Position numbers and translations under genes: made by a program. This document shows, piece by piece, positions 20,678 through 48,556 of a stretch of 64,000 bases of DNA. This stretch comes from Thermoplasmata archaeon (GTDB taxonomy: Archaea; Thermoplasmatota; Thermoplasmata; Thermoplasmatales; ARK-15). Within the stretch, counting starts at the first letter, position 1. The number at the start of each line of letters is the position of its first letter. The notes beneath the pieces were generated by a model. That model was not told where the DNA came from. It searched no databases and saw nothing but the letters and a program-made list of their open reading frames with translations. The stretch spans positions 55,814-119,813 of the forward strand of contig JBAMMA010000006.1 in NCBI GenBank assembly GCA_039794005.1. The letters are read 5' to 3'.

Positions 20678-23299
20678 ATGATGTCAGATCCATTAGACCT
20701 TGAAATTCTTCATAATAGAGGTTTTGTGAGAAAGAAGTGCGAAAAATGTGGAGCAACATTTTGGACTTCAGACCCAGATAGAAATACATGTGGTGAATTT
20801 CCATGCGATCCTTACATTTTTCTGGATAAAAGGATAATGAAAGAGGAAATTAATTTTTATGAAATGATGGATAAATTTATAGAATTTTTTAAAAGTAGAA
20901 ATCATGGAAAAATAGAAAGATTTCCCGTAGTTGCTAGATGGAGAAAGGATGTTTTTCTTGTAAATGCTTCTATATACGATTTTCAGCCACACATAACATC
21001 TGGAGAAGTCCCCCCACCTGCAAATCCTCTGGTTGTGGCACAGCCATGCATTAGACTTGTTGATATTGATGATGTAGGTAAAACAGGAAGACATTTAACA
21101 AGCTTTATCATGATGGCACACCATGCGTTCAACTATCCGGATAAATACGTATATTGGAAAGATGAAACGGTTTCATACGCCCTGGATTTTCTGGAAAGTT
21201 TAGGAATAGATAAAAATTATATAACTTTGAAGGAAAATCCGTGGACAGGAGGAGGGAATGGAGGATATGCATTTGAGGTAATAGTTGGAGGTCTTGAGGT
21301 GGCCACTCTTGTTTTCATGGAATTCATTGAGGATCCAAATGGTGATATTGAACTGAATGGCCAAAAATTTAGGAAAATGGATATAAGGGTTGTTGACACT
21401 GGATATGGATTGGAAAGGTTTGTCTGGGTATCTAAGTCATCACCCTCTATTTTCGATGCCATTTATTCAGACATAATAAATAGAATTTTAGAAATTTCAA
21501 ATAAAAAGTTTCCTGAATCTTACAATGAATTCATGAAAAGATTTGTTTCAATCAAAGACAAGAGTGAGGATGTATTGATTGAATGGGCAAAAAAAATAAT
21601 AATGGATCTCGGTTTGGATGATTCTTACATTGATTTTCTGAACTATATAAGGAAGATCGAGCTGATTGTAGACCATACGAGATCTGCTCTCTTTATGTTA
21701 AATGATGGGGCTGTACCATCTAACGTAAAATCCGGGTATCTTGCAAGATTTGTTCTAAGGAGGTTGTTTAGGGTTTTGGAGGAAACAAATTTGATCGGCC
21801 ATATGGATTACATATTTAAATTGGAAATGGAATATTTCAAGTCAATGCTTGATGAGGAGATGTTTCCAGTAATAATGGATATGGTAAAAGTTGAATATGA
21901 AAGATATAAAGAGAACATTAAAAAGTCCGAGAATATTATTGAAAAATACTTGCAAAAAGGGAATGTTGATTTAGATACACTGATACAACTTTATGATTCA
22001 TATGGTATTTTGCCTGAAATCGTTGCAGAAAAGGCAAAGGAAAAGGGGATTTTGATAAAAATACCGGAGAATTTTAGGTCTATCGTGGCATCTAAACATG
22101 AAAGGTCTCAGGAAAAAGAAAAGGAAAAGACGGTGAAATTAAATTTGAAACCAACCAGGACACTTTATTATGAAGACCCTTACATGAAAGAATTTGATGC
22201 GAATATAATATTCATAGGGGAAAATTTTGTGGTTCTGGATCAAACCGCATTTTACCCTGAAGGAGGAGGACAACCTTCAGATCTCGGTTATATGATGCAA
22301 GATGAAAAGAAATATTTTGTTAAGGATGTGCAAAAGTATGGAGATGTTATATTGCATTATTTAGAGAATGAAAATGAAATGCCAAGGATTGGAAAAGTTC
22401 ACGGAGTGATAAATTGGGATAGAAGGGCAAGGCTTATGAGAAATCATACTGCAACACACATTCTTTTACACAGCTGCAGAAAAATTTTAGGAAAACATGT
22501 GTGGCAAGCTGGTGCACAGAAAGATGTTTTATATTCCAGATTGGATATAACGCATTACAAGAGGATTTCCAATGAAGAAATAAGGCAAATTGAAAAGGAG
22601 GCCATGAAAATCATAACCGAATGCGTTCCTGTATCAGCGGAATGGATGGACAGGAATGAGGCTGAAAAACTTTATGGATTCAGGTTATATGAAGGTGGAA
22701 TTCCACCGGGCGAAAAAATCAGGGTTGTTAAAGTAGGCAATTACGATGCGGAAGGTTGTGGTGGCACACATGTTAAAAATACAGGTGAAATAGGTTTCAT
22801 AAAAATTATAAAGGAAGAAAAAATACAGGACGGTGTTTCAAGGATAATATTCACTTCCTGGCTTGGAGCCATTGAAGAGGTGCATAAAATAGAAAACATT
22901 CTAAATATATCTTCGGGTATTTTAAAAGTAGAACATGACAAATTGCCTAAGACGATTGAAAGATTTTTTGAAGAATGGAAAGAATTGAAGAAATATAAAG
23001 AAAAAATGCAGGAGAGGATCATTTATTATATAATAGAGGATATAAAAAATAAAAAAATAGATATAAAAAATGGCAAAATATCTTATGGTGAGGTGGAAAA
23101 GGATATTTTATTCAACGTTGCTAAACTGCTAAAGGAAAAAAAGATTGATGCCATTTTAAAATCTGAGAATCTAATAGGCATTGTAGATTCTGGAAACATT
23201 AAAATCCCAGAAAATATAAAATATAAGGACGTTGGATTTATAAAAATTATAGAGGGTGCAAAATTGGATGATGTTGTTTCAATGTTGGAGGTTAAATAA
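20678..23299 (+). CDS. alaS: Alanine-tRNA ligase (archaeal type)
   Basis: ASIYDFQP, QPCIR, DTGYGLER, editing motifs HTATH and CGGTH. Confidence 0.96.
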   Translation: MMSDPLDLEILHNRGFVRKKCEKCGATFWTSDPDRNTCGEFPCDPYIFLDKRIMKEEINFYEMMDKFIEFFKSRNHGKIERFPVVARWRKDVFLVNASIYDFQPHITSGEVPPPANPLVVAQPCIRLVDIDDVGKTGRHLTSFIMMAHHAFNYPDKYVYWKDETVSYALDFLESLGIDKNYITLKENPWTGGGNGGYAFEVIVGGLEVATLVFMEFIEDPNGDIELNGQKFRKMDIRVVDTGYGLERFVWVSKSSPSIFDAIYSDIINRILEISNKKFPESYNEFMKRFVSIKDKSEDVLIEWAKKIIMDLGLDDSYIDFLNYIRKIELIVDHTRSALFMLNDGAVPSNVKSGYLARFVLRRLFRVLEETNLIGHMDYIFKLEMEYFKSMLDEEMFPVIMDMVKVEYERYKENIKKSENIIEKYLQKGNVDLDTLIQLYDSYGILPEIVAEKAKEKGILIKIPENFRSIVASKHERSQEKEKEKTVKLNLKPTRTLYYEDPYMKEFDANIIFIGENFVVLDQTAFYPEGGGQPSDLGYMMQDEKKYFVKDVQKYGDVILHYLENENEMPRIGKVHGVINWDRRARLMRNHTATHILLHSCRKILGKHVWQAGAQKDVLYSRLDITHYKRISNEEIRQIEKEAMKIITECVPVSAEWMDRNEAEKLYGFRLYEGGIPPGEKIRVVKVGNYDAEGCGGTHVKNTGEIGFIKIIKEEKIQDGVSRIIFTSWLGAIEEVHKIENILNISSGILKVEHDKLPKTIERFFEEWKELKKYKEKMQERIIYYIIEDIKNKKIDIKNGKISYGEVEKDILFNVAKLLKEKKIDAILKSENLIGIVDSGNIKIPENIKYKDVGFIKIIEGAKLDDVVSMLEVK

Positions 23300-24966
23300 T
23301 GTTCAACGTACATGAAATAGATTCTATTGTTAGAAAATACTTTTCCGTTTATGAGGCAAAATTAACGCCTGAATATTTGGAATATAAGGTATTGATATAT
23401 CCATCACATAAAGAAACAATGAAACAATTCAGAATGTTGTGGAAGGAATTGAAAAGTTTTGAATATTTACCAACTTTGTCGGATGAAAAAGGTGAATACA
23501 TTATAAGGGTAATACCATTTCCACAACAAAAGGGATTTTCAATATGGGTAAACATAATTCTATTGATTGCAACACTCATATCAACAATTTTGGTGGGTGC
23601 TTCAAACTATGGAGGATATTTCAACGAATATTGGCTCAGCGCGAATTCGATCATAGGTGGAACATTATTTTTTGCTATTCCATTAATGGCAATACTTGGA
23701 TTACATGAACTCGGCCATTACTTTGCTTCAAAGAGGAATGGTGTAAGGGCATCCCTACCGTTTTTTATTCCTGCACCGACTATGGTAGGAACGCTTGGAG
23801 CATTCATATCAATAAGGGAACCAATACCCGATAGAAAAGCTCTTTTAGAAATAGGAGCTTCAGGTCCGATTGTTGGATTTATTGTGGCAATACCCATAGC
23901 AATATTCGGCAATTATCTGGGGAATATAATGCATCCAGTTATACAGGATTCAGCGACGAGAATGGTAATATATCCACCTCTAATATACAACATAATAAAT
24001 CTATTTGTTCCGGAGACTTCTTATATGTTTCCCATGGCGTTTGCCGCGTGGGTGGGATTTGTTGTTACAGCGATTAACCTTCTGCCCATAGGACAGCTTG
24101 ATGGTGGGCATATAGCGAGGGCCCTGCTTGGAAATAAATCAAAATATCTAAGCTATGCGTTCTTTGTATTCCTGCTAATAATTGGGTTATTCTATATAGG
24201 TTGGCTAATTTTTGCGCTTTTTGTCCTAATATTGGGACTTAATCACCCCCCTTCACTTAATGACGTGTCTAAAATTGAAAAGAAGGGATATACGATAGGA
24301 ATAATTTCAATATTGTTGATATCAGTTACTTTTGTACCGGTGCCGATAAATGAATATGTATTATATGAAAGGATAAATGTTCAGACTCCTAGCACGCAAG
24401 TTCCATTAATAATAAATTGCATTGAAAATTACACGGGAAAAATAATAATAAAGAATACGGGTGATAAGATTGAAAATGTTAGTGTAAATGTAATATCACC
24501 GTTAAAAGTTGATTATAAAAATTACATTGGAAATCTCTCTGTTAATTCTTCATGGATAGAATATTTCAACGTTAGCATAAATAACAATACAAAACCCGGG
24601 TTGTACAATGTAACGTTTATTTTCAAAACAATCCTTGAAAGTTATAGCGCTTATTATAACATGTCTATAATTGTATTTAATAAAACAAACAATATAAAAT
24701 TCATAAATCCAACATATTACACAAATGTATCAAAGATCAACGAATCTTTTATCTACACTGGAAATACAACTACGATGATAAAAATATGGCCCATTAACAA
24801 TGCATCGATTTTCATAAACAACATTTTGATGAATAATTCAGCACAGATAATGGTAAATCCAAACTCGATTACGAACATGACGATCTTGTTTAAAAATCCT
24901 GGAAACTACAATTTAATATTATATTATGATGAAAATGCTACATGCATGAGGATTAGCTATGTCTGA
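23299..24966 (+). CDS. Site-2 protease (M50) with Asn-rich C-terminal extracellular domain
   Basis: HELGH and NLLPIGQLDGGH motifs; multiple TM helices. Confidence 0.9.
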   Translation: MFNVHEIDSIVRKYFSVYEAKLTPEYLEYKVLIYPSHKETMKQFRMLWKELKSFEYLPTLSDEKGEYIIRVIPFPQQKGFSIWVNIILLIATLISTILVGASNYGGYFNEYWLSANSIIGGTLFFAIPLMAILGLHELGHYFASKRNGVRASLPFFIPAPTMVGTLGAFISIREPIPDRKALLEIGASGPIVGFIVAIPIAIFGNYLGNIMHPVIQDSATRMVIYPPLIYNIINLFVPETSYMFPMAFAAWVGFVVTAINLLPIGQLDGGHIARALLGNKSKYLSYAFFVFLLIIGLFYIGWLIFALFVLILGLNHPPSLNDVSKIEKKGYTIGIISILLISVTFVPVPINEYVLYERINVQTPSTQVPLIINCIENYTGKIIIKNTGDKIENVSVNVISPLKVDYKNYIGNLSVNSSWIEYFNVSINNNTKPGLYNVTFIFKTILESYSAYYNMSIIVFNKTNNIKFINPTYYTNVSKINESFIYTGNTTTMIKIWPINNASIFINNILMNNSAQIMVNPNSITNMTILFKNPGNYNLILYYDENATCMRISYV

Positions 24967-26068
24967 TATTTTCACCATAAATAGCACAAGTGGTAAGGCA
25001 AGGAGTGGCATTATTAAAACGCCTCATGGATATGTCAAAACACCAGTATTTATGCCAGTTGCCACAAAGGGAACAATAAAGACAATTCCATCATGGGATT
25101 TTAAATCGCTGAGGATAGAGATGATTATATCTAACGCATTCCATTTATATTTTAGGCCTGGGCTAGAAATTATTAAAAAGTTTGGAGGCCTACACAAATT
25201 CATAAACTTTGAAGGATCGATATTCACAGACAGCGGCGGTTTCCAAATGTCAAATGAAGACTTTTACTTTGGAATTAGGGAAAATGGAATAATATTTAGA
25301 GACCCGGTTTCAGGAGAGAAGATATTGTTTACTCCTGAACTTTCCGCAAAGATCCAGAATGAGATAGGTTCTGATATTGCCATGGCCCTGGATTATGTTT
25401 TGCCATACGGTAAAAGCAAAAGAAGAATGGAAGAGGCTGTAAAATTAACTTACAATTGGGCAAAATTGTTCAGGGAAAAAAGGGATGGTATTTCATTTGG
25501 AATTGTTCAGGGGGGAACATTTAAGGATCTCAGGGAAAGAAGTGCAAATGAAATAACATCTATAGATTTTGAAGGTTATGCAATAGGCGGATTATCTATG
25601 GGAGAGCCGAAGGAACTGATGATGGATATACTGGAATACACGGTAGATTTACTGCCAAGAGAAAAACCGAGATATTTTATGGGATTGGGATCCCCACTGG
25701 ACATTATAAAGGGGGTAATGTTAGGTATAGATATCTTTGATTCTGTATTTCCAACCAGAAACGCAAGGCATGGACTGGCATTGACATGGAATGGACCCAT
25801 AAATCTCAGAAAAAATTATCTAAAAGATAATTTCAATAAACTGGATGAAAGATGCGAGTGTAAAACATGCAATTTTTATAATATTTCATATATTCATCAT
25901 CTCTTCAAGGAAAATGAAATATTGGGGCTCTATTTATTAACAATCCATAACATAAATTTCATGATGGATTTAATGGAAAAGATAAGGGAAGGCATTGAAA
26001 AAAATACAATAAATGAATTATATGAAAAGTTAGAGGAGGCGTATGGTAAAAATGGTGATAAGAAATAA
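24959..26068 (+). CDS. tgt: Bacterial-type tRNA-guanine transglycosylase
   Basis: TPVFMPVAT, HLYFRPG, TDSGGFQ, FGIVQGG, IGGLSMGE, FDSVFPTRNAR, Zn site CECKTC..H; 369 aa with no PUA extension. Confidence 0.92.
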   Translation: MSDIFTINSTSGKARSGIIKTPHGYVKTPVFMPVATKGTIKTIPSWDFKSLRIEMIISNAFHLYFRPGLEIIKKFGGLHKFINFEGSIFTDSGGFQMSNEDFYFGIRENGIIFRDPVSGEKILFTPELSAKIQNEIGSDIAMALDYVLPYGKSKRRMEEAVKLTYNWAKLFREKRDGISFGIVQGGTFKDLRERSANEITSIDFEGYAIGGLSMGEPKELMMDILEYTVDLLPREKPRYFMGLGSPLDIIKGVMLGIDIFDSVFPTRNARHGLALTWNGPINLRKNYLKDNFNKLDERCECKTCNFYNISYIHHLFKENEILGLYLLTIHNINFMMDLMEKIREGIEKNTINELYEKLEEAYGKNGDKK

Positions 26069-27692
26069 AATCATTGAAAATAAGGATACATTGGTTGAAG
26101 AACTTTCTAAAATTGATGATGGAAGCGTAATAGCAATTGCCGGGTTCAACAATTCTGTTACCCCTTTGTACATTATGTATTCATTAATAGATTCATATAA
26201 AAAATATGGGAGGCCAAAAAACATATTTATTGAGGCAGACTCCTTCCCTGGAGTTCCAGGGACAGGCTTAGACATAATAATGAAAGAAATTTATGAAAAT
26301 AGGTGGAAAGATTTCATTTCGGGTATATTAATACCATATTTATATAGATCTGAATACCTACAAAGGCTTGCGATGGAAAATTATTTTGAAATATATAGCT
26401 TCAGCATAGGCATAACAACATCACTTTTCAGGGAACTGGGTTCAGGAAGACCTGGTGTTTTAACAAAGATAGGTCTTGGAACATTTCACGATCCAAGGCT
26501 TGATAATTCAGCGGTAAATGAAAAAGCGAGAATTAAAAAGAGGTGCAAGGCGGAATTGATTAATATAAATAATGAGGAATACCTTTTGTATACAGCACCA
26601 AAACCACAGATTGCATTTGTAAGGGCCACATCCTCGGACATTGATGGAAATCTTTCTATGGAGGAGGAGGGGATTTATGGTGCGACCTTGCCTGTGGTTT
26701 TGGCGACAAAGTCAAATCCTGGAGGAAAGGTATTTGCTCAGGTAAAATATGTAGTTTCTCAGAAAAGTAGATCCCCGAAGGAAATACATGTACCCGGGCC
26801 TCTCGTTGATTATATCGTTCATGCGCCAAAAGAATATGCTCCTCAGGGTTCAACAGTATATTACGATCCCATGATATCTGGCCAGAGCATACCTAATGAA
26901 ATAAAAATTAAATTTCCAAACAGGGAGATGGATGAGAGGTTCGTCATAAGGAGGAGGGTTGCTTACGAAATTGCAAAATTGATTGCACGTGAAAAGAGAG
27001 ACATAATAGTAAATTTTGGTACGGGCCTTCCAACAGAAATATCTTCCGTTTTGGCTGAGGAGGGCATATCTGAATGTATTCATACCACAGTTGAATCGGG
27101 ACCTTGGGGAGGTGTTGCATTAACCGGAAATGATTTTGGACTTTCATATGGCCCTTATTCAATAATACAACAGGCCGATCAATTTATCGTTTATGAGGGA
27201 GGAATTGCAGATTTGACATCACTAGGTTTTCTGGAGGTTGATAAAAATGGAAACGTGAATCCATCGTATACTGGCGAAAGGATACCTGGTCCGGGTGGAT
27301 TTTCTGACATATCGAGCGGAATTAATAGGATATATTTTGCTGGCGGTTTTACAGGAGGCGAAAGAGATATAAGAGTACATGAAAATAAATTAATAATAAA
27401 AAAGGATGGAGACATTATAAAATTCGTTGAAAGAGTGAAAAAGGTATTTTTCTCTGGGGAATATGCAATAAAAAGGAAAAAGGAAGTATTATACATAACT
27501 GAAAGGGCAGTATTTACCCTGACGGAAAGTGGGTTAAAATTGATAGAGATAGCCCCCGGGGTTGATATAGATAAGGACATTTTGGAAAAGATGGAATTCA
27601 AGCCAATTATTGATGAATATGATTTTATACCAGAGATTATATTTTCAAATAAAAAAATGAATTTAAAGGAAATATCAAATTGTTTGATATAG
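26043..27692 (+). CDS. Fused acyl-CoA:acetate/propionate CoA-transferase (YdiF/Pct type)
   Basis: TKIGLGTFHDPR, catalytic VESG, GNVN, YITERAVF, EIAPGVD. Confidence 0.88.
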   Translation: MVKMVIRNKIIENKDTLVEELSKIDDGSVIAIAGFNNSVTPLYIMYSLIDSYKKYGRPKNIFIEADSFPGVPGTGLDIIMKEIYENRWKDFISGILIPYLYRSEYLQRLAMENYFEIYSFSIGITTSLFRELGSGRPGVLTKIGLGTFHDPRLDNSAVNEKARIKKRCKAELININNEEYLLYTAPKPQIAFVRATSSDIDGNLSMEEEGIYGATLPVVLATKSNPGGKVFAQVKYVVSQKSRSPKEIHVPGPLVDYIVHAPKEYAPQGSTVYYDPMISGQSIPNEIKIKFPNREMDERFVIRRRVAYEIAKLIAREKRDIIVNFGTGLPTEISSVLAEEGISECIHTTVESGPWGGVALTGNDFGLSYGPYSIIQQADQFIVYEGGIADLTSLGFLEVDKNGNVNPSYTGERIPGPGGFSDISSGINRIYFAGGFTGGERDIRVHENKLIIKKDGDIIKFVERVKKVFFSGEYAIKRKKEVLYITERAVFTLTESGLKLIEIAPGVDIDKDILEKMEFKPIIDEYDFIPEIIFSNKKMNLKEISNCLI

Positions 27693-29152
27693 GGGTGAAA
27701 GGATTGGATAATATTAATGAATTGATTGAAAAATACAAGTCAATTGAGGCAATAAATCATGCAAAGAGGTTGATGTTTTGGGACATGGAGACGGTAATGC
27801 CGCCGTCTGGGATAGAGGAGAGGTCTGAAGTTTTATCAAATATTGAAAACTATCAAAAGAAGATGTATCTGGAATTGAAGGATCTGGTAGATAAAATTGA
27901 AGAGAATGATGATTATTCAGAGGCAATAAAAAGGATATTAAAAAAGCAAATACACTATTATTCATCATTGCCCGATGAAATCAACAGGGAGATCACAAAA
28001 ATATCTGCCATTGCAGAGAGTGTTTGGAAAATTGCCAAGAATAGAAATAATTTCAAAATTGTCGAACCATATTTAGAAAAAATTGTAGACTTGGAGATTA
28101 AAATAACCGAATACCTTGGATATAAAAAGCATCCGTATGATGCATTGCTTGATAATTATGAAGAAGATTTTACAGTTGATGATGGAGATAAAGTATTCGA
28201 TTATTTAATAAGAGAGACAAAAGGAATGATAGATAAGGTGATGGATAAAGAATTTTCAAAAACACAAAAAATAAAAAATGAAAAATATAAAAAGGAATGG
28301 ATGGTTTCAATATCGAATGATCTAAAAAATATATTCAAAATACCTGAAGACAAATTTAGGATTGATGAATCCGTTCATCCATTCACAATAAATATTTCAC
28401 CAGACGATGTTAGAATTACAACAAAATTTGAGCTTATTGACTTCAAAAAATCGCTTTTTGCAACAATACACGAAATGGGACATGCTATATATCTTTTAAA
28501 CATTAACAAGGAATATGGATGCACTCCATTATATTCATCGCCATCGTTTGGGTTTGATGAATCACAATCAAGGTTTCTTGAAAATTTCATAGGTAAAAGC
28601 AAAGAATTCACCGAATTTTTTTATCCAATTTTGAAAAGACATCTGCCATTCATTAAAAAATATGATACTGATGAAATATACTATTATTTCAACAATATAG
28701 ATAGAACGCCAATTAGAATTGATGCTGATGAATTGACTTATAATATTCATATTGCAATAAGGTATGATATTGAAAAGAATTTGATTGAAGGTAAATATAA
28801 AGTTAGTGAAATACCTGAAATATGGGATTCCAAAATGGAGGAATACCTGGGGATTAGGCCTAGGAATCACAAGGAGGGAATTCTTCAAGACATACACTGG
28901 TATCAGGGGAGTTTTGGTTACTTTCCAACATATACACTTGGAAACATAATAGCTGCAATAATATGGTATAAAATAGAAAATATCAGAGAACATTTAATGA
29001 ATGGTGATTTTGACCAAATCTTTGAATTTCTTAAAAATAATATACACATATATGGTGCCCTATACTCGCCAAAGGATTTGCTAAGAAGATCATTTAACGA
29101 AGATTATAATCCAGAATATTTAATAAAATATTTTAAAGAAAAATTTATTTAA
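27680..29152 (+). CDS. M32 carboxypeptidase
   Basis: HPF, HEMGH, ESQSRF, IRIDADE, QDIHW..GYFPTY. Confidence 0.93.
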   Translation: MFDIGVKGLDNINELIEKYKSIEAINHAKRLMFWDMETVMPPSGIEERSEVLSNIENYQKKMYLELKDLVDKIEENDDYSEAIKRILKKQIHYYSSLPDEINREITKISAIAESVWKIAKNRNNFKIVEPYLEKIVDLEIKITEYLGYKKHPYDALLDNYEEDFTVDDGDKVFDYLIRETKGMIDKVMDKEFSKTQKIKNEKYKKEWMVSISNDLKNIFKIPEDKFRIDESVHPFTINISPDDVRITTKFELIDFKKSLFATIHEMGHAIYLLNINKEYGCTPLYSSPSFGFDESQSRFLENFIGKSKEFTEFFYPILKRHLPFIKKYDTDEIYYYFNNIDRTPIRIDADELTYNIHIAIRYDIEKNLIEGKYKVSEIPEIWDSKMEEYLGIRPRNHKEGILQDIHWYQGSFGYFPTYTLGNIIAAIIWYKIENIREHLMNGDFDQIFEFLKNNIHIYGALYSPKDLLRRSFNEDYNPEYLIKYFKEKFI

Positions 29153-43126: not shown

Positions 43127-43269
43127 TGGGGGCACTGGGATTTGAACCCAGATCCGCGGGTCTCTCCCTAGGATCATTTCTCCAGTTATTCATCATTTTT
43201 CAGCAGACCCATGGAGAATCATTTCCTTAACTGGAGCCCGCTAGGATGCCCTGATTACCCCATGCCCCC
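43127..43269 (-). tRNA. tRNA-Trp (CCA) with 69-nt intron at position 37/38
   Basis: GGGGGCA/TGCCCCC acceptor stem; GCGGG-CT-CCA-G|intron|A-CCCGC; CTGGG-TTCAAAT-CCCAG; bulge-helix-bulge with CTCC/GGAG central helix. Confidence 0.95.
43162..43230 (-). ncRNA. tRNA-Trp intron-encoded box C/D guide RNA (predicted Cm34 and Cm39)
   Basis: C box ATGATT, D' CTGA, C' ATGATGA, D ATGA. Guides TAACTGGAG and GGGTCT are complementary to the exon-intron junctions, and the N+5 rule lands on C34 and C39. Confidence 0.88.
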
Positions 43270-46900: not shown

Positions 46901-47287
46901 TTATATCCATCTTTCTCCTTTTTCTGATAATTCCTTTTTCCAGATGGGAACCCTCTTTTTTATTTCATCGACAATATAGATTATGGCTTCAAAACCCTCT
47001 TTTCTATGTTTGCTTATTACCTTCACAACCATTGCTATTTCACCATGTTTAACAAAACCGATCCTGTGAAAAATGCAAACATCTTGGATTTGGTATTTTT
47101 CCAACGCCTCTTTTGATATCTTTTCCATCTCCAATTTTGCCAGATTTATTTCAGATTCATAATATAATCCCTTTATCTCATATCCTTCATATCCCCTCAC
47201 AATACCTTTGAATATTATTTCATCCCCAGTCTCTTTATTATAATTGCAGTTTAATTCAACATAATTTTCAGATATTTCTATCATCAT
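46901..47287 (-). CDS. moaE: Molybdopterin synthase catalytic subunit
   Basis: F.G.VR, HRIG, HRKEGF, K..VPIWKKE; start taken at ATG 47287. Confidence 0.85.
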   Translation of the reverse strand: MMIEISENYVELNCNYNKETGDEIIFKGIVRGYEGYEIKGLYYESEINLAKLEMEKISKEALEKYQIQDVCIFHRIGFVKHGEIAMVVKVISKHRKEGFEAIIYIVDEIKKRVPIWKKELSEKGERWI

Positions 47288-47825
47288 ACTTTTCAAGCAT
47301 ATATGAATATCTATCAAATTCGCTGAATATACAACCGCAATATCCCTGTCTATACATTTTATATTTCCTTGCCATGTCATCTCCCTTTGGATAATTTTCT
47401 CTGTAATCTTTATAATAGAATTTTATTCCATACTTTTTCTCCATCCTATATCCTATTTGTTTTATCATCTCATGTTTTTGAAATGGCGAATATAACATCG
47501 ATGTTGTAAATCCATCATATCCATTTTCTTTGGCATATTTTGCCACCCTGTCAAGCCTGTCGGCATAACAAAACATGCATCTTAAATATTCCCCTTTTTT
47601 ATTCAACTTTACGGCATTTTCTAACCATTCCTGAACATTGTATTCTTTATCTATGATCAATTCAAATTTTTTCTCCTTTGAAAATTCAATAAGCGTTTCA
47701 AGTCTCCTTATATATTCTCTCAGAGGATGTATGTTTGGATTATAAAAATATACTTTAAATTCTTGGTCAATGTCGTCAATCATTCCTGATAAACATGGGG
47801 CACAACATGCATGTACCAATATCAT
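47268..47825 (-). CDS. queH: Epoxyqueuosine reductase QueH (DUF208)
   Basis: HACCAPC, FYNPNIHP..EY.RR, RCMFCY..RL, FTTSMLYSPFQ, YRQGYCGCIFS. Confidence 0.9.
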   Translation of the reverse strand: MILVHACCAPCLSGMIDDIDQEFKVYFYNPNIHPLREYIRRLETLIEFSKEKKFELIIDKEYNVQEWLENAVKLNKKGEYLRCMFCYADRLDRVAKYAKENGYDGFTTSMLYSPFQKHEMIKQIGYRMEKKYGIKFYYKDYRENYPKGDDMARKYKMYRQGYCGCIFSEFDRYSYMLEKYDDRNI

Positions 47826-48556
47826 ATGAACTTTGGCTCCCTTTTTTCAAAGAATGCCTTTATTGCTTCCTTACCGTTCTGTGACGCAACTATTTTTCCG
47901 AACATGGATCTTTCTAAAACATACGAATTTTCTTTCAACATTAATTTATAGGCACGTATTGCATCAGGATTCTTTTTTGATATTTCCATTGCAATCTTTT
48001 GAGCCTCATTCAAATAGTCTTCAGATATCACATGTATTATTCCAAGATTCTTTAATTCCTCAGCACTCAAAACTTTTCCGGTCAAAAGGAGATATGATGC
48101 CATGCTTTTCCCAACATACCTGATCAGTCTTTCAGCACCTCCCCAACCCGTGACCAAACCAACGTTTATTTCAGTTTGCCCCATAACAACGTTTGGCCTG
48201 GCGACTCTTATATCGCATGCAAGAGACAGTTCCATACCACCACCATATGCAGGGCCATTTAATGCTGCGATGTATACCTTTTCACTATTTTCAATGTAAT
48301 CTAAAACCATCTGTCCAATGAATGAAAACCTACTACCGCCATATTCGTCCAAGGTGATCATCTGTGAAAGATCCCCACCCGCGGAAAAATATTTCCCAGA
48401 ACCTGTAATTATGACTGAAATTATATTTTTCTTGGATTCCAAAGATCTAAAAGATGAATATAGTTCCTCCATCAACTCAATGTTCATTGCATTTGCCTTA
48501 TCTTCACGCCTAATTGTGATTATTGCATATCCGTTTTTTTCCTCAAGTTCAATCAT
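47822..48556 (-). CDS. Enoyl-CoA hydratase/isomerase
   Basis: FSAGGDL, GGGMELSLACD, GQTEINVG. Confidence 0.9.
   Translation of the reverse strand: MIELEEKNGYAIITIRREDKANAMNIELMEELYSSFRSLESKKNIISVIITGSGKYFSAGGDLSQMITLDEYGGSRFSFIGQMVLDYIENSEKVYIAALNGPAYGGGMELSLACDIRVARPNVVMGQTEINVGLVTGWGGAERLIRYVGKSMASYLLLTGKVLSAEELKNLGIIHVISEDYLNEAQKIAMEISKKNPDAIRAYKLMLKENSYVLERSMFGKIVASQNGKEAIKAFFEKREPKFI

Follow-up and report, generated by a model that had tools for sequence, protein, structure and literature searches.

A bacterial-type tRNA-guanine(34) transglycosylase in a Thermoplasmata family that carries QueA and QueH, with QueF and known importers not found

What does a bacterial-type tRNA-guanine(34) transglycosylase (Tgt) do in an archaeon? 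Queuosine (Q) is customarily presented as a modification of bacteria and eukaryotes, and archaeosine as that of archaea. The gene in question, tgt, lies in a 64,000-nucleotide stretch of Thermoplasmata DNA (G000:C6:55814-119813), the whole of which we call the window, and the closest named relatives are 'Thermoplasmata archaeon' metagenome-assembled genomes. The window genome is referred to as G000, its family as f1, the sister family as f2 and its genus as g1. With a probability of about 0.6, we read the gene as coding for a working enzyme of G34 that would feed QueA and QueH to make queuosine, with the source of the precursor base preQ1 unexplained. The main interest lies in a family-wide set of queuosine genes without QueF, and with known importers not found, in an archaeon that makes preQ0. 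Two questions become concrete at this locus: whether archaea carry Q34, and where preQ1 originates when QueF is absent.

24959..26068, + strand: tgt, bacterial-type tRNA-guanine(34) transglycosylase, 369 amino acids (Pfam TGT, TIGR00430 and 2ash matches)

The tgt open reading frame starts with ATG and is intact. A domain search of all 369 residues showed a single Pfam TGT domain (residues 13-362, 446 bits), with neither a PUA domain nor any other extension. The protein scored 428.2 bits against the NCBIfam model TIGR00430, 'tRNA guanosine(34) transglycosylase Tgt' (cut-off 306.75), and 428 bits against the superfamily model TIGR00449, whereas the arcTGT model TIGR00432 gave 155.6 bits, below its cut-off of 350. 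In the NCBIfam search its matches were confined to Tgt, arcTGT and ArcS models. The motifs FMPVAT (residue 31), DSGGFQ (91), GIVQGG (181), GGLSMGE (210) and FDSVFPTRNARHG (260) were all present. The first-pass annotation had described a 369-residue TGT with bacterial hallmarks and no PUA domain, acting at G34 and distinct from arcTGT, and this description was borne out by the motifs, the lone TGT domain and the model scores, as well as by a separate arcTGT with a PUA domain on contig C19.

The best solved relative by HMMER was the Thermotoga maritima TGT 2ash (E 1.4e-112, residues 5-366), followed by Zymomonas mobilis TGT chains (about 1e-92), human QTRT1 (1.2e-78) and the Pyrococcus arcTGT 1iq8 (1.6e-21); identity to solved TGTs was about 50%. 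Residues D91, D145, Q184, G211-L212, E216, M241, D261, C299/C301/C304 and H330 were conserved, corresponding in the same order to Z. mobilis D102, D156, Q203, G230-L231, E235, M260, D280, C318/C320/C323 and H349. The residue roles are those established for Z. mobilis, in part as given in passages of Biela 2013. D261 (in FDSVFPTR) and D91 (in DSGGFQ) are equivalent to Asp280 and Asp102, the nucleophile and its partner in the catalytic pair. The base-recognition residues (D145, Q184, G211), the peptide switch L212-S213 with E216, and the zinc site CxCxxC...H (C299, C301, C304, H330) were all kept. Relatives of the protein are already named Tgt by the NCBI pipeline, and the window gene is an ordinary member of this well-known family. 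The cluster representative P0001 is listed as 100% identical to the window Tgt, though it differs by one residue (R for N after CKTC).

The partners of Tgt were sought across the window genome. The first-pass annotation had suggested searching for queA, queC/D/E/F, arcTGT/arcS and precursor transporters, and the search recovered QueA, QueH, QueC, QueD-like and QueE-like genes, arcTGT and RaSEA.

47268..47825, - strand: queH, epoxyqueuosine reductase, the last queuosine step (Pfam QueH 191.6 bits, profile positions 1-173 of 175)
G000:C19:54445-55440: queA (NF001140, 386 bits, cut-off 324)
G000:C19:238-2139 (locus L065, outside the window), - strand: arcTGT with a PUA domain (TIGR00432, 539 bits)

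QueC scored 228 bits, and a QueD-like PTPS gene lies directly upstream of it (Pfam 77.7 bits, short of the cut-off for the QueD equivalog); a radical SAM gene resembling QueE scored 235 bits, below the cut-off of 300, and RaSEA scored 348 bits with TIGR01210 (cut-off 212). No match to QueG above cut-off was seen in the genome. With Tgt, QueA and QueH present, all three tRNA-level steps of queuosine synthesis are therefore encoded beside a normal archaeosine route. The queuosine genes are dispersed, tgt and queH being 21 kb apart and queA standing on another contig. Genes for tRNA-Asn (GUU), tRNA-Asp (GUC), tRNA-His (GUG) and tRNA-Tyr (GUA) were all present, and those for Asn, Asp and Tyr showed U33-G34-U35.

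Several further observations were made at these genes. The tRNA-Tyr(GUA) gene (G000:C19:76027-76119) holds an intron of about 21 nt, and ARAGORN run without introns miscalls it as tRNA-His. The arcTGT of the genome has Y, S and Y at the places of the zinc cysteines of Pyrococcus horikoshii ArcTGT (YvSpYi against CsCpvC), with the histidine kept. The queH gene comes immediately after an enoyl-CoA hydratase gene (47822-48556, - strand), with which it overlaps, and each of the four family genera retains this pairing. Adjoining queA in three genera is a gene for a 295-residue protein without a family match (G000:C19:52491-53375, - strand; L064:6492-7376), which, with its signal peptide, C-terminal membrane anchor and numerous N-x-S/T sites, is probably a glycosylated surface protein. 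It was considered for the missing preQ1 step and rejected on these surface-protein features; an aldo-keto reductase gene beside queA was considered as well, and was present in just two of the four genera.

We infer the activity, the base used and the source of preQ1 from what was observed, namely family membership, residues, partners and distribution. In the proposed mechanism, Tgt would remove G34 from tRNA-Asp, tRNA-Asn, tRNA-His and tRNA-Tyr through a covalent Asp261 intermediate and would insert a 7-deazaguanine base, most likely preQ1, at position 34. QueA would add an epoxycyclopentanediol from S-adenosylmethionine, QueH would reduce the product to queuosine, and this route would run beside the archaeosine route (QueC/D/E, arcTGT, RaSEA). 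QueA chemistry requires the aminomethyl group of preQ1. In our family sample (16 genomes of four genera, seven of them at least 90% complete), profile searches found Tgt, QueA and QueH in 16 of 16 genomes. The main argument for queuosine is that QueA and QueH, which act only after preQ1, are kept throughout the family, so that an aminomethyl base and not a nitrile base would reach the tRNA.

Several results weigh against this reading. QueF was missing, as the preQ0 idea of the first-pass annotation requires: PF14489 gave no match in G000 or in any of the 16 family genomes, NCBIfam TIGR03139 and TIGR03138 gave none in five family genomes (at most 14 bits, TIGR03139 cut-off 86.9), and the QueF open reading frame of the sister family had no tblastn match in G000, while 6 of the 15 other open reading frames in the same 12-kb sister-family locus did match. 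No importer of the QueT, HlyIII or ureide-permease type was found in the 16 family genomes, nor was the importer QPTR/YhhQ found in the six tested. The window genome itself is 1.10 Mb in 20 contigs, 87.2% complete and 0.29% contaminated, and preQ0 is the sole deazaguanine that the cell is seen to make. The specificity pocket of the enzyme carries a Cys-to-Val change (Val147, below) of the kind shown experimentally to weaken preQ1 binding. Passages of a 2020 review assign Q to Bacteria and Eukarya only (PMC7694415), and the public sequencing runs amount to four DNA entries from two studies (hot springs metagenome), one of them possibly the source, and none is RNA. Since neither QueF nor a known importer was found, preQ1 would have to come from an unrecognised importer, by salvage from neighbouring bacteria, or from an unrecognised preQ0 reductase. 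Passages of two papers hold that Tgt kept without preQ1 synthesis implies precursor salvage (PMC11570991, PMC11130926).

The wider distribution of these genes was determined in 201 genomes of the class, from 77 genera. Bacterial-type Tgt above the equivalog cut-off was present in 51 of the 201 genomes and 23 of the 77 genera, and all 51 also carried QueA, so that Tgt accompanied by QueA is present in a quarter of the genomes sampled from one archaeal class. By our own count from the place tables, 38 of the 51 have queA and tgt within 40 nt of each other. The first-pass annotation had called bacterial-type tgt genes in archaea sporadic; their occurrence in archaea stands, and the word understates how widespread they are in this class. 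QueF was found in 37 of the 201 genomes. Among the Tgt-bearing genomes, 32 of 51 had QueF and 19 did not, the latter belonging to f1 (3), f5 (4), f16 (5), f18 (1), f20 (3), f28 (2) and f17 (1).

The transporter QPTR was present in all five genomes of f16 and in three of four of f20, out of nine in the class overall. In f16 and f20 its gene (TIGR00697, 54-60 bits, cut-off 50.95) adjoins queA, tgt and a gene for a protein with a pair of ACT domains. The presence of QPTR beside queA-tgt in these QueF-less families indicates that archaeal owners of the pathway use precursor salvage. The preQ1-source gap remains for f1, f5, f18 and f28.

The ACT-pair protein (125 residues, two ACT domains) is encoded directly upstream of queA-tgt in f5, f16 and f20, at L105:5784-6158, L106:5509-5883, L107:5546-5926, L109:5620-5997, L110:4589-4963 and L111:6002-6376, and may be a small-molecule sensor tied to salvage of Q precursors. 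QueA was found in 78 of the 201 genomes in total, including the unpublished, Tgt-less genome G098 of f13. QueA-like genes (98-250 bits, most matching from about profile position 20) occur in 27 Tgt-less genomes of the class (f3 6/19, f10 7/10, f13 8/23, f25 3/6, f27 1/1, with fragments in f5 and f12). Having no bacterial-type Tgt, such genomes would lack the usual substrate of QueA.

The residues of the Tgt specificity pocket were located by HMMER alignment to the Z. mobilis TGT chains, which placed D145-Y146-V147 on positions 156-158 and G210-E216 (GGLSMGE) on positions 229-235.

25397..25399, + strand: Val147 codon, equivalent to Z. mobilis Cys158, specificity position (HMMER alignment)
25598..25600, + strand: Met214 codon, equivalent to Z. 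mobilis Val233, specificity position (HMMER alignment)

The first-pass annotation had read these two positions as Val (ALDYV) and Met (GGLSMGE) from a manual alignment, and the HMMER alignment and a check of the codons showed it to be right. Among the 120 nearest homologues, the 158-equivalent was C in 116, V in 3 and M in 1, and the 233-equivalent was I in 76, V in 38, L in 4 and M in 2, the two Met being those of the query cluster itself and of the relative at 81% identity. A wider alignment of 140 other sequences had C at the first position in 99% and M at the second in 0%. The window Tgt thus has neither residue of the preQ1-type pair (Cys158 with Val/Ile233), while 114 of the 120 homologues have I or V at the second position.

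Within the family, the pockets of g78 (7 genomes) and g79 (4) read DYCIPYG and GGLSIGE, the canonical state of the clade, and those of g2 (3) read DYCVPYG and GGLLIGE. The pair DYVLPYG and GGLSMGE was confined to genus g1 (the window genome and G208), 2 of the 16 family genomes. QueF is missing from the whole family, whereas the Val/Met pocket is limited to one genus; the loss of QueF is therefore older and did not require the pocket change. In the class, all 22 QueF-bearing Tgt sequences examined had Cys/Ser-Ile, and non-canonical pockets were seen solely in the QueF-less lineages g1, g2, f5 and f16; QueF-less genomes with a canonical pocket were found in f18, f20, f28 and 11 of the 16 genomes of f1. 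This comparison covered all but 11 of the 51 class Tgt sequences (10 from f17, one from f12). The lineages are few and related, so a link between QueF loss and a non-canonical pocket is suggestive only.

Published mutagenesis bears on both positions. Passages of one study give a rise in Km(preQ1) from 0.9 to 16 uM for Z. mobilis C158V, with guanine unaffected (PMC3660597), and passages of another give a 55-fold rise for E. coli C145V (PMC3074131), from which Val147 should weaken preQ1 binding. Passages of the Z. mobilis study also report that Val233 blocks productive binding of queuine and that V233G opens the 233-158 cavity that queuine needs (PMC3660597). By this comparison, Met214 should fill and not open the queuine cavity, and the pocket should stay closed to queuine. 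The Cys158Val/Ile233Met pocket would then be a conservative, genus-specific retuning which, going by the published mutants, would lower the affinity for preQ1.

The strongest alternative is that Tgt inserts endogenous preQ0 from the archaeosine branch at G34, either as the end product or to be reduced on the tRNA before QueA acts, with the genus-specific pocket tuned for a nitrile base. Bacterial TGT accepts preQ0 in vitro. The absence of QueF from all 16 family genomes, with no known importer found, and the presence of QueC, QueD-like and QueE-like genes fit this alternative, as does the 18- to 55-fold loss of preQ1 affinity that passages of PMC3660597 and PMC3074131 give for C158V-type changes in two bacterial enzymes. 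However, QueA and QueH are full length and high scoring in 16 of 16 genomes and QueA needs the preQ1 aminomethyl group, and 11 of the 16 QueF-less family members keep the canonical Cys/Ile pocket. The arcTGT of the same genome has D-I-F and GGVVPLL where the window Tgt has DYV and GGLSMGE, so that the pocket shows no convergence on a preQ0 type, and the window Tgt keeps Leu231 and Glu235.

Nor were the changes of this genus concentrated in the pocket. Eight genus-specific substitutions were counted among 122 columns conserved in the other 17 family and sister sequences, and two of these fell in 13 positions that we presume to form the pocket, which is not a significant enrichment (hypergeometric P(X>=2) = 0.20). 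Tgt showed no special acceleration in genus g1, its relative rate being the same as that of alaS, queA and queH; identities for g1-g79 against g78-g79 were 60.9 and 62.5 for Tgt and 60.5 and 66.1 for alaS. The long stem in the trees (0.32-0.33) reflects the genus as a whole.

Use of preQ0 is therefore possible but less likely than use of preQ1, and we regard this alternative as unlikely. The first-pass annotation had proposed a wobble deazaguanine pathway with altered base preference, for example for preQ0; the pathway itself is supported by QueA and QueH in the same genome, and QueF is absent, as the preQ0 part requires, though that part was weakened by the evidence just given. A joint claim seems about equally doubtful, namely that, with no QueF, the family turns its own preQ0 into wobble queuosine through a non-homologous reductase or by reduction of preQ0 on the tRNA at G34, with the Val158/Met233 pocket of g1 retuned toward the nitrile base. 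If true, it would be a new branch point of archaeosine and queuosine and the first archaeal route to Q.

A working queuosine enzyme remains our preferred reading when set against the possibility that tgt is a decaying relic, or acts on another target (DNA, as DpdA does, position 15, or mRNA), with no queuosine made. In the literature searched, Q in archaea has no experimental support, and the pathway is broken at preQ1. Against this, the reading frame is unbroken, no catalytic or zinc residue is lost, selection is strongly purifying, and the relative rate of Tgt matches that of alaS, queA and queH; the NCBIfam matches are limited to Tgt, arcTGT and ArcS models, and a dedicated arcTGT is present for G15. 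We consider such a relic or retargeted enzyme improbable.

Slightly more improbable still is direct salvage of queuine, as by eukaryotic QTRT1 and Chlamydia TGT, in which Val158, Ser232 and Phe106 would be steps to a eukaryotic pocket. These three positions of the window Tgt do hold the eukaryotic states, and no gene for preQ1 synthesis was found. However, Ser232 and Phe106 are common to the whole clade including T. maritima, and the Met at 233 is bulkier than the bacterial Val/Ile. Passages of PMC11570991 give the motif GG[LS][AS]G for queuine-salvaging bacterial TGTs; the window Tgt has GGLSMG, and the space-opening Gly is missing. A queuine user would have a small residue at 233 and neither QueA nor QueG/H, both of the partners found here would be useless to it, and they are conserved in 16 of 16 genomes.

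The standing of tgt in its genome was assessed from gene order, substitution rates and trees. It is the third gene of a co-directional cluster with the following neighbours.

20678..23299, + strand: alaS, archaeal type, first gene of the cluster (TIGR03683, 1083.5 bits)
23299..24966, + strand: M50/S2P-type membrane protease, overlapping the start of tgt by 8 nt
26043..27692, + strand: CoA-transferase family gene, its start overlapping the end of tgt by 26 nt
27680..29152, + strand: M32 carboxypeptidase, closing the cluster (the genus-mate locus L030 keeps this order)

The 8 nt common to the S2P stop and the tgt start read ATGTCTGA. That tgt is embedded by overlaps had been stated in the first-pass annotation, and both overlaps were found as described. 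The order alaS-S2P-tgt was kept in three genera of the family (g1, g78, g79), with the CoA-transferase gene after tgt in two of them (g1, g78). The genus-mate locus L030 showed the full order alaS-S2P-tgt-CoA-transferase-M32-orf95-TFB, with identities of 76, 69, 81, 83, 68, 76 and 95%, respectively, so that Tgt at 81% falls within the 68-95% of its neighbours; it was the lone close relative in a search of genome contigs for related loci. Comparison gave pN 0.118 and pS 0.752 for tgt (dS saturated) and pN 0.138 and pS 0.746 for alaS. Elsewhere in the window, ARAGORN with introns allowed found a tRNA-Trp(CCA) with a 69-nt intron at about 43127-43269 (- strand).

Tgt trees were built with FastTree (n=161) and with IQ-TREE (LG+C20, quick search, n=51), both rooted on the arcTGT of the genome. 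The Tgt sequences of f1 and f2 formed one supported clade (99* in FastTree, 98* in IQ-TREE), within which the four genera were recovered, the query joined its genus-mate (100*), and this pair nested with g78 (96*). The tree thus follows taxonomy within f1 and f2, as vertical inheritance would predict. The deep backbone, relating the archaeal groups to Thermotogae and Clostridia, did not resolve, and we make no claim on a donor. The earlier suggestion that the gene is domesticated agrees with the three-genus synteny, the tree and the alaS-like pN/pS; tgt is native and under strong purifying selection. We propose that tgt, queA and queH have long been resident in this Thermoplasmata lineage and were probably inherited vertically. 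That the gene is a bacterial contaminant, or was recently transferred and then binned with archaeal DNA, can practically be dismissed: outside Archaea its nearest solved and named cellular relatives come from Thermotogae and Clostridia, but tgt lies between archaeal-type alaS (TIGR03683, 1083 bits) and TFB in a 120-kb contig where reading frames overlap, its GC content of 0.34 matches the surroundings, a second species and three genera show the same gene order, and the gene tree agrees with the genera.

A bacterial queuosine pathway in archaea is already published. Passages of Castelle 2021 (PMC8204110) credit 34 archaeal genomes, of which 12 are DPANN, and some Methanosarcinales with a bacterial queuosine pathway (QueA, QueH-like, Tgt), either whole or in part. 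Its main text, in the passages covered, does not name Thermoplasmata for the pathway, and the part of its supplementary Table 5 that was covered has one Thermoplasmata row, with QueA only, where others may exist. Our literature search returned no paper on Q in Thermoplasmata and no experimental Q in archaea, with subscription journals thinly covered and the absence therefore unproven. The new parts here are a QueF-less family with no known importer found, and the pocket variant.

Compared with known systems, the DPANN and Methanosarcinales genes in the passages of Castelle 2021 (PMC8204110) are alike in having the same Tgt, QueA and QueH-like set, there read as laterally acquired; they differ in being co-localised, where those of the window genome are dispersed, and neither QueF absence nor pocket residues appear in the passages covered. 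Salvage-dependent bacterial Tgt systems (QueF-less with QPTR/YhhQ or QueT; Bartonella, Chlamydia) likewise keep Tgt without preQ1 synthesis, whereas in family f1 none of the four tested transporter families was found and the cell makes preQ0 itself. The P. horikoshii arcTGT 1iq8 shares the superfamily fold and the catalytic aspartates, but the window Tgt is without its C-terminal and PUA domains, matches it only at E 1.6e-21 and scores 156 bits with TIGR00432. Eukaryotic QTRT1 (E 1.2e-78) has the same Val at 158, Ser at 232 and Phe at 106, while its Gly233 is Met in the window Tgt, and QueA and QueH, missing in queuine users, are present here. The closest likeness is to the bacterial Tgt of T. 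maritima (2ash), Z. mobilis (1enu) and E. coli, which share the equivalog family, whole-length alignment, size, lack of a PUA domain, catalytic Asp pair, Asp156/Gln203/Gly230, Leu231/Glu235 switch, CxCxxC...H site and the partners QueA and QueH. Unlike these, the window enzyme belongs to an archaeon that also runs archaeosine synthesis, in a family without QueF and with no known importer found, and it has Val for Cys158 and Met for Val/Ile233, a natural pair that provides a test of the specificity rules drawn from the Z. mobilis, E. coli and human enzymes.

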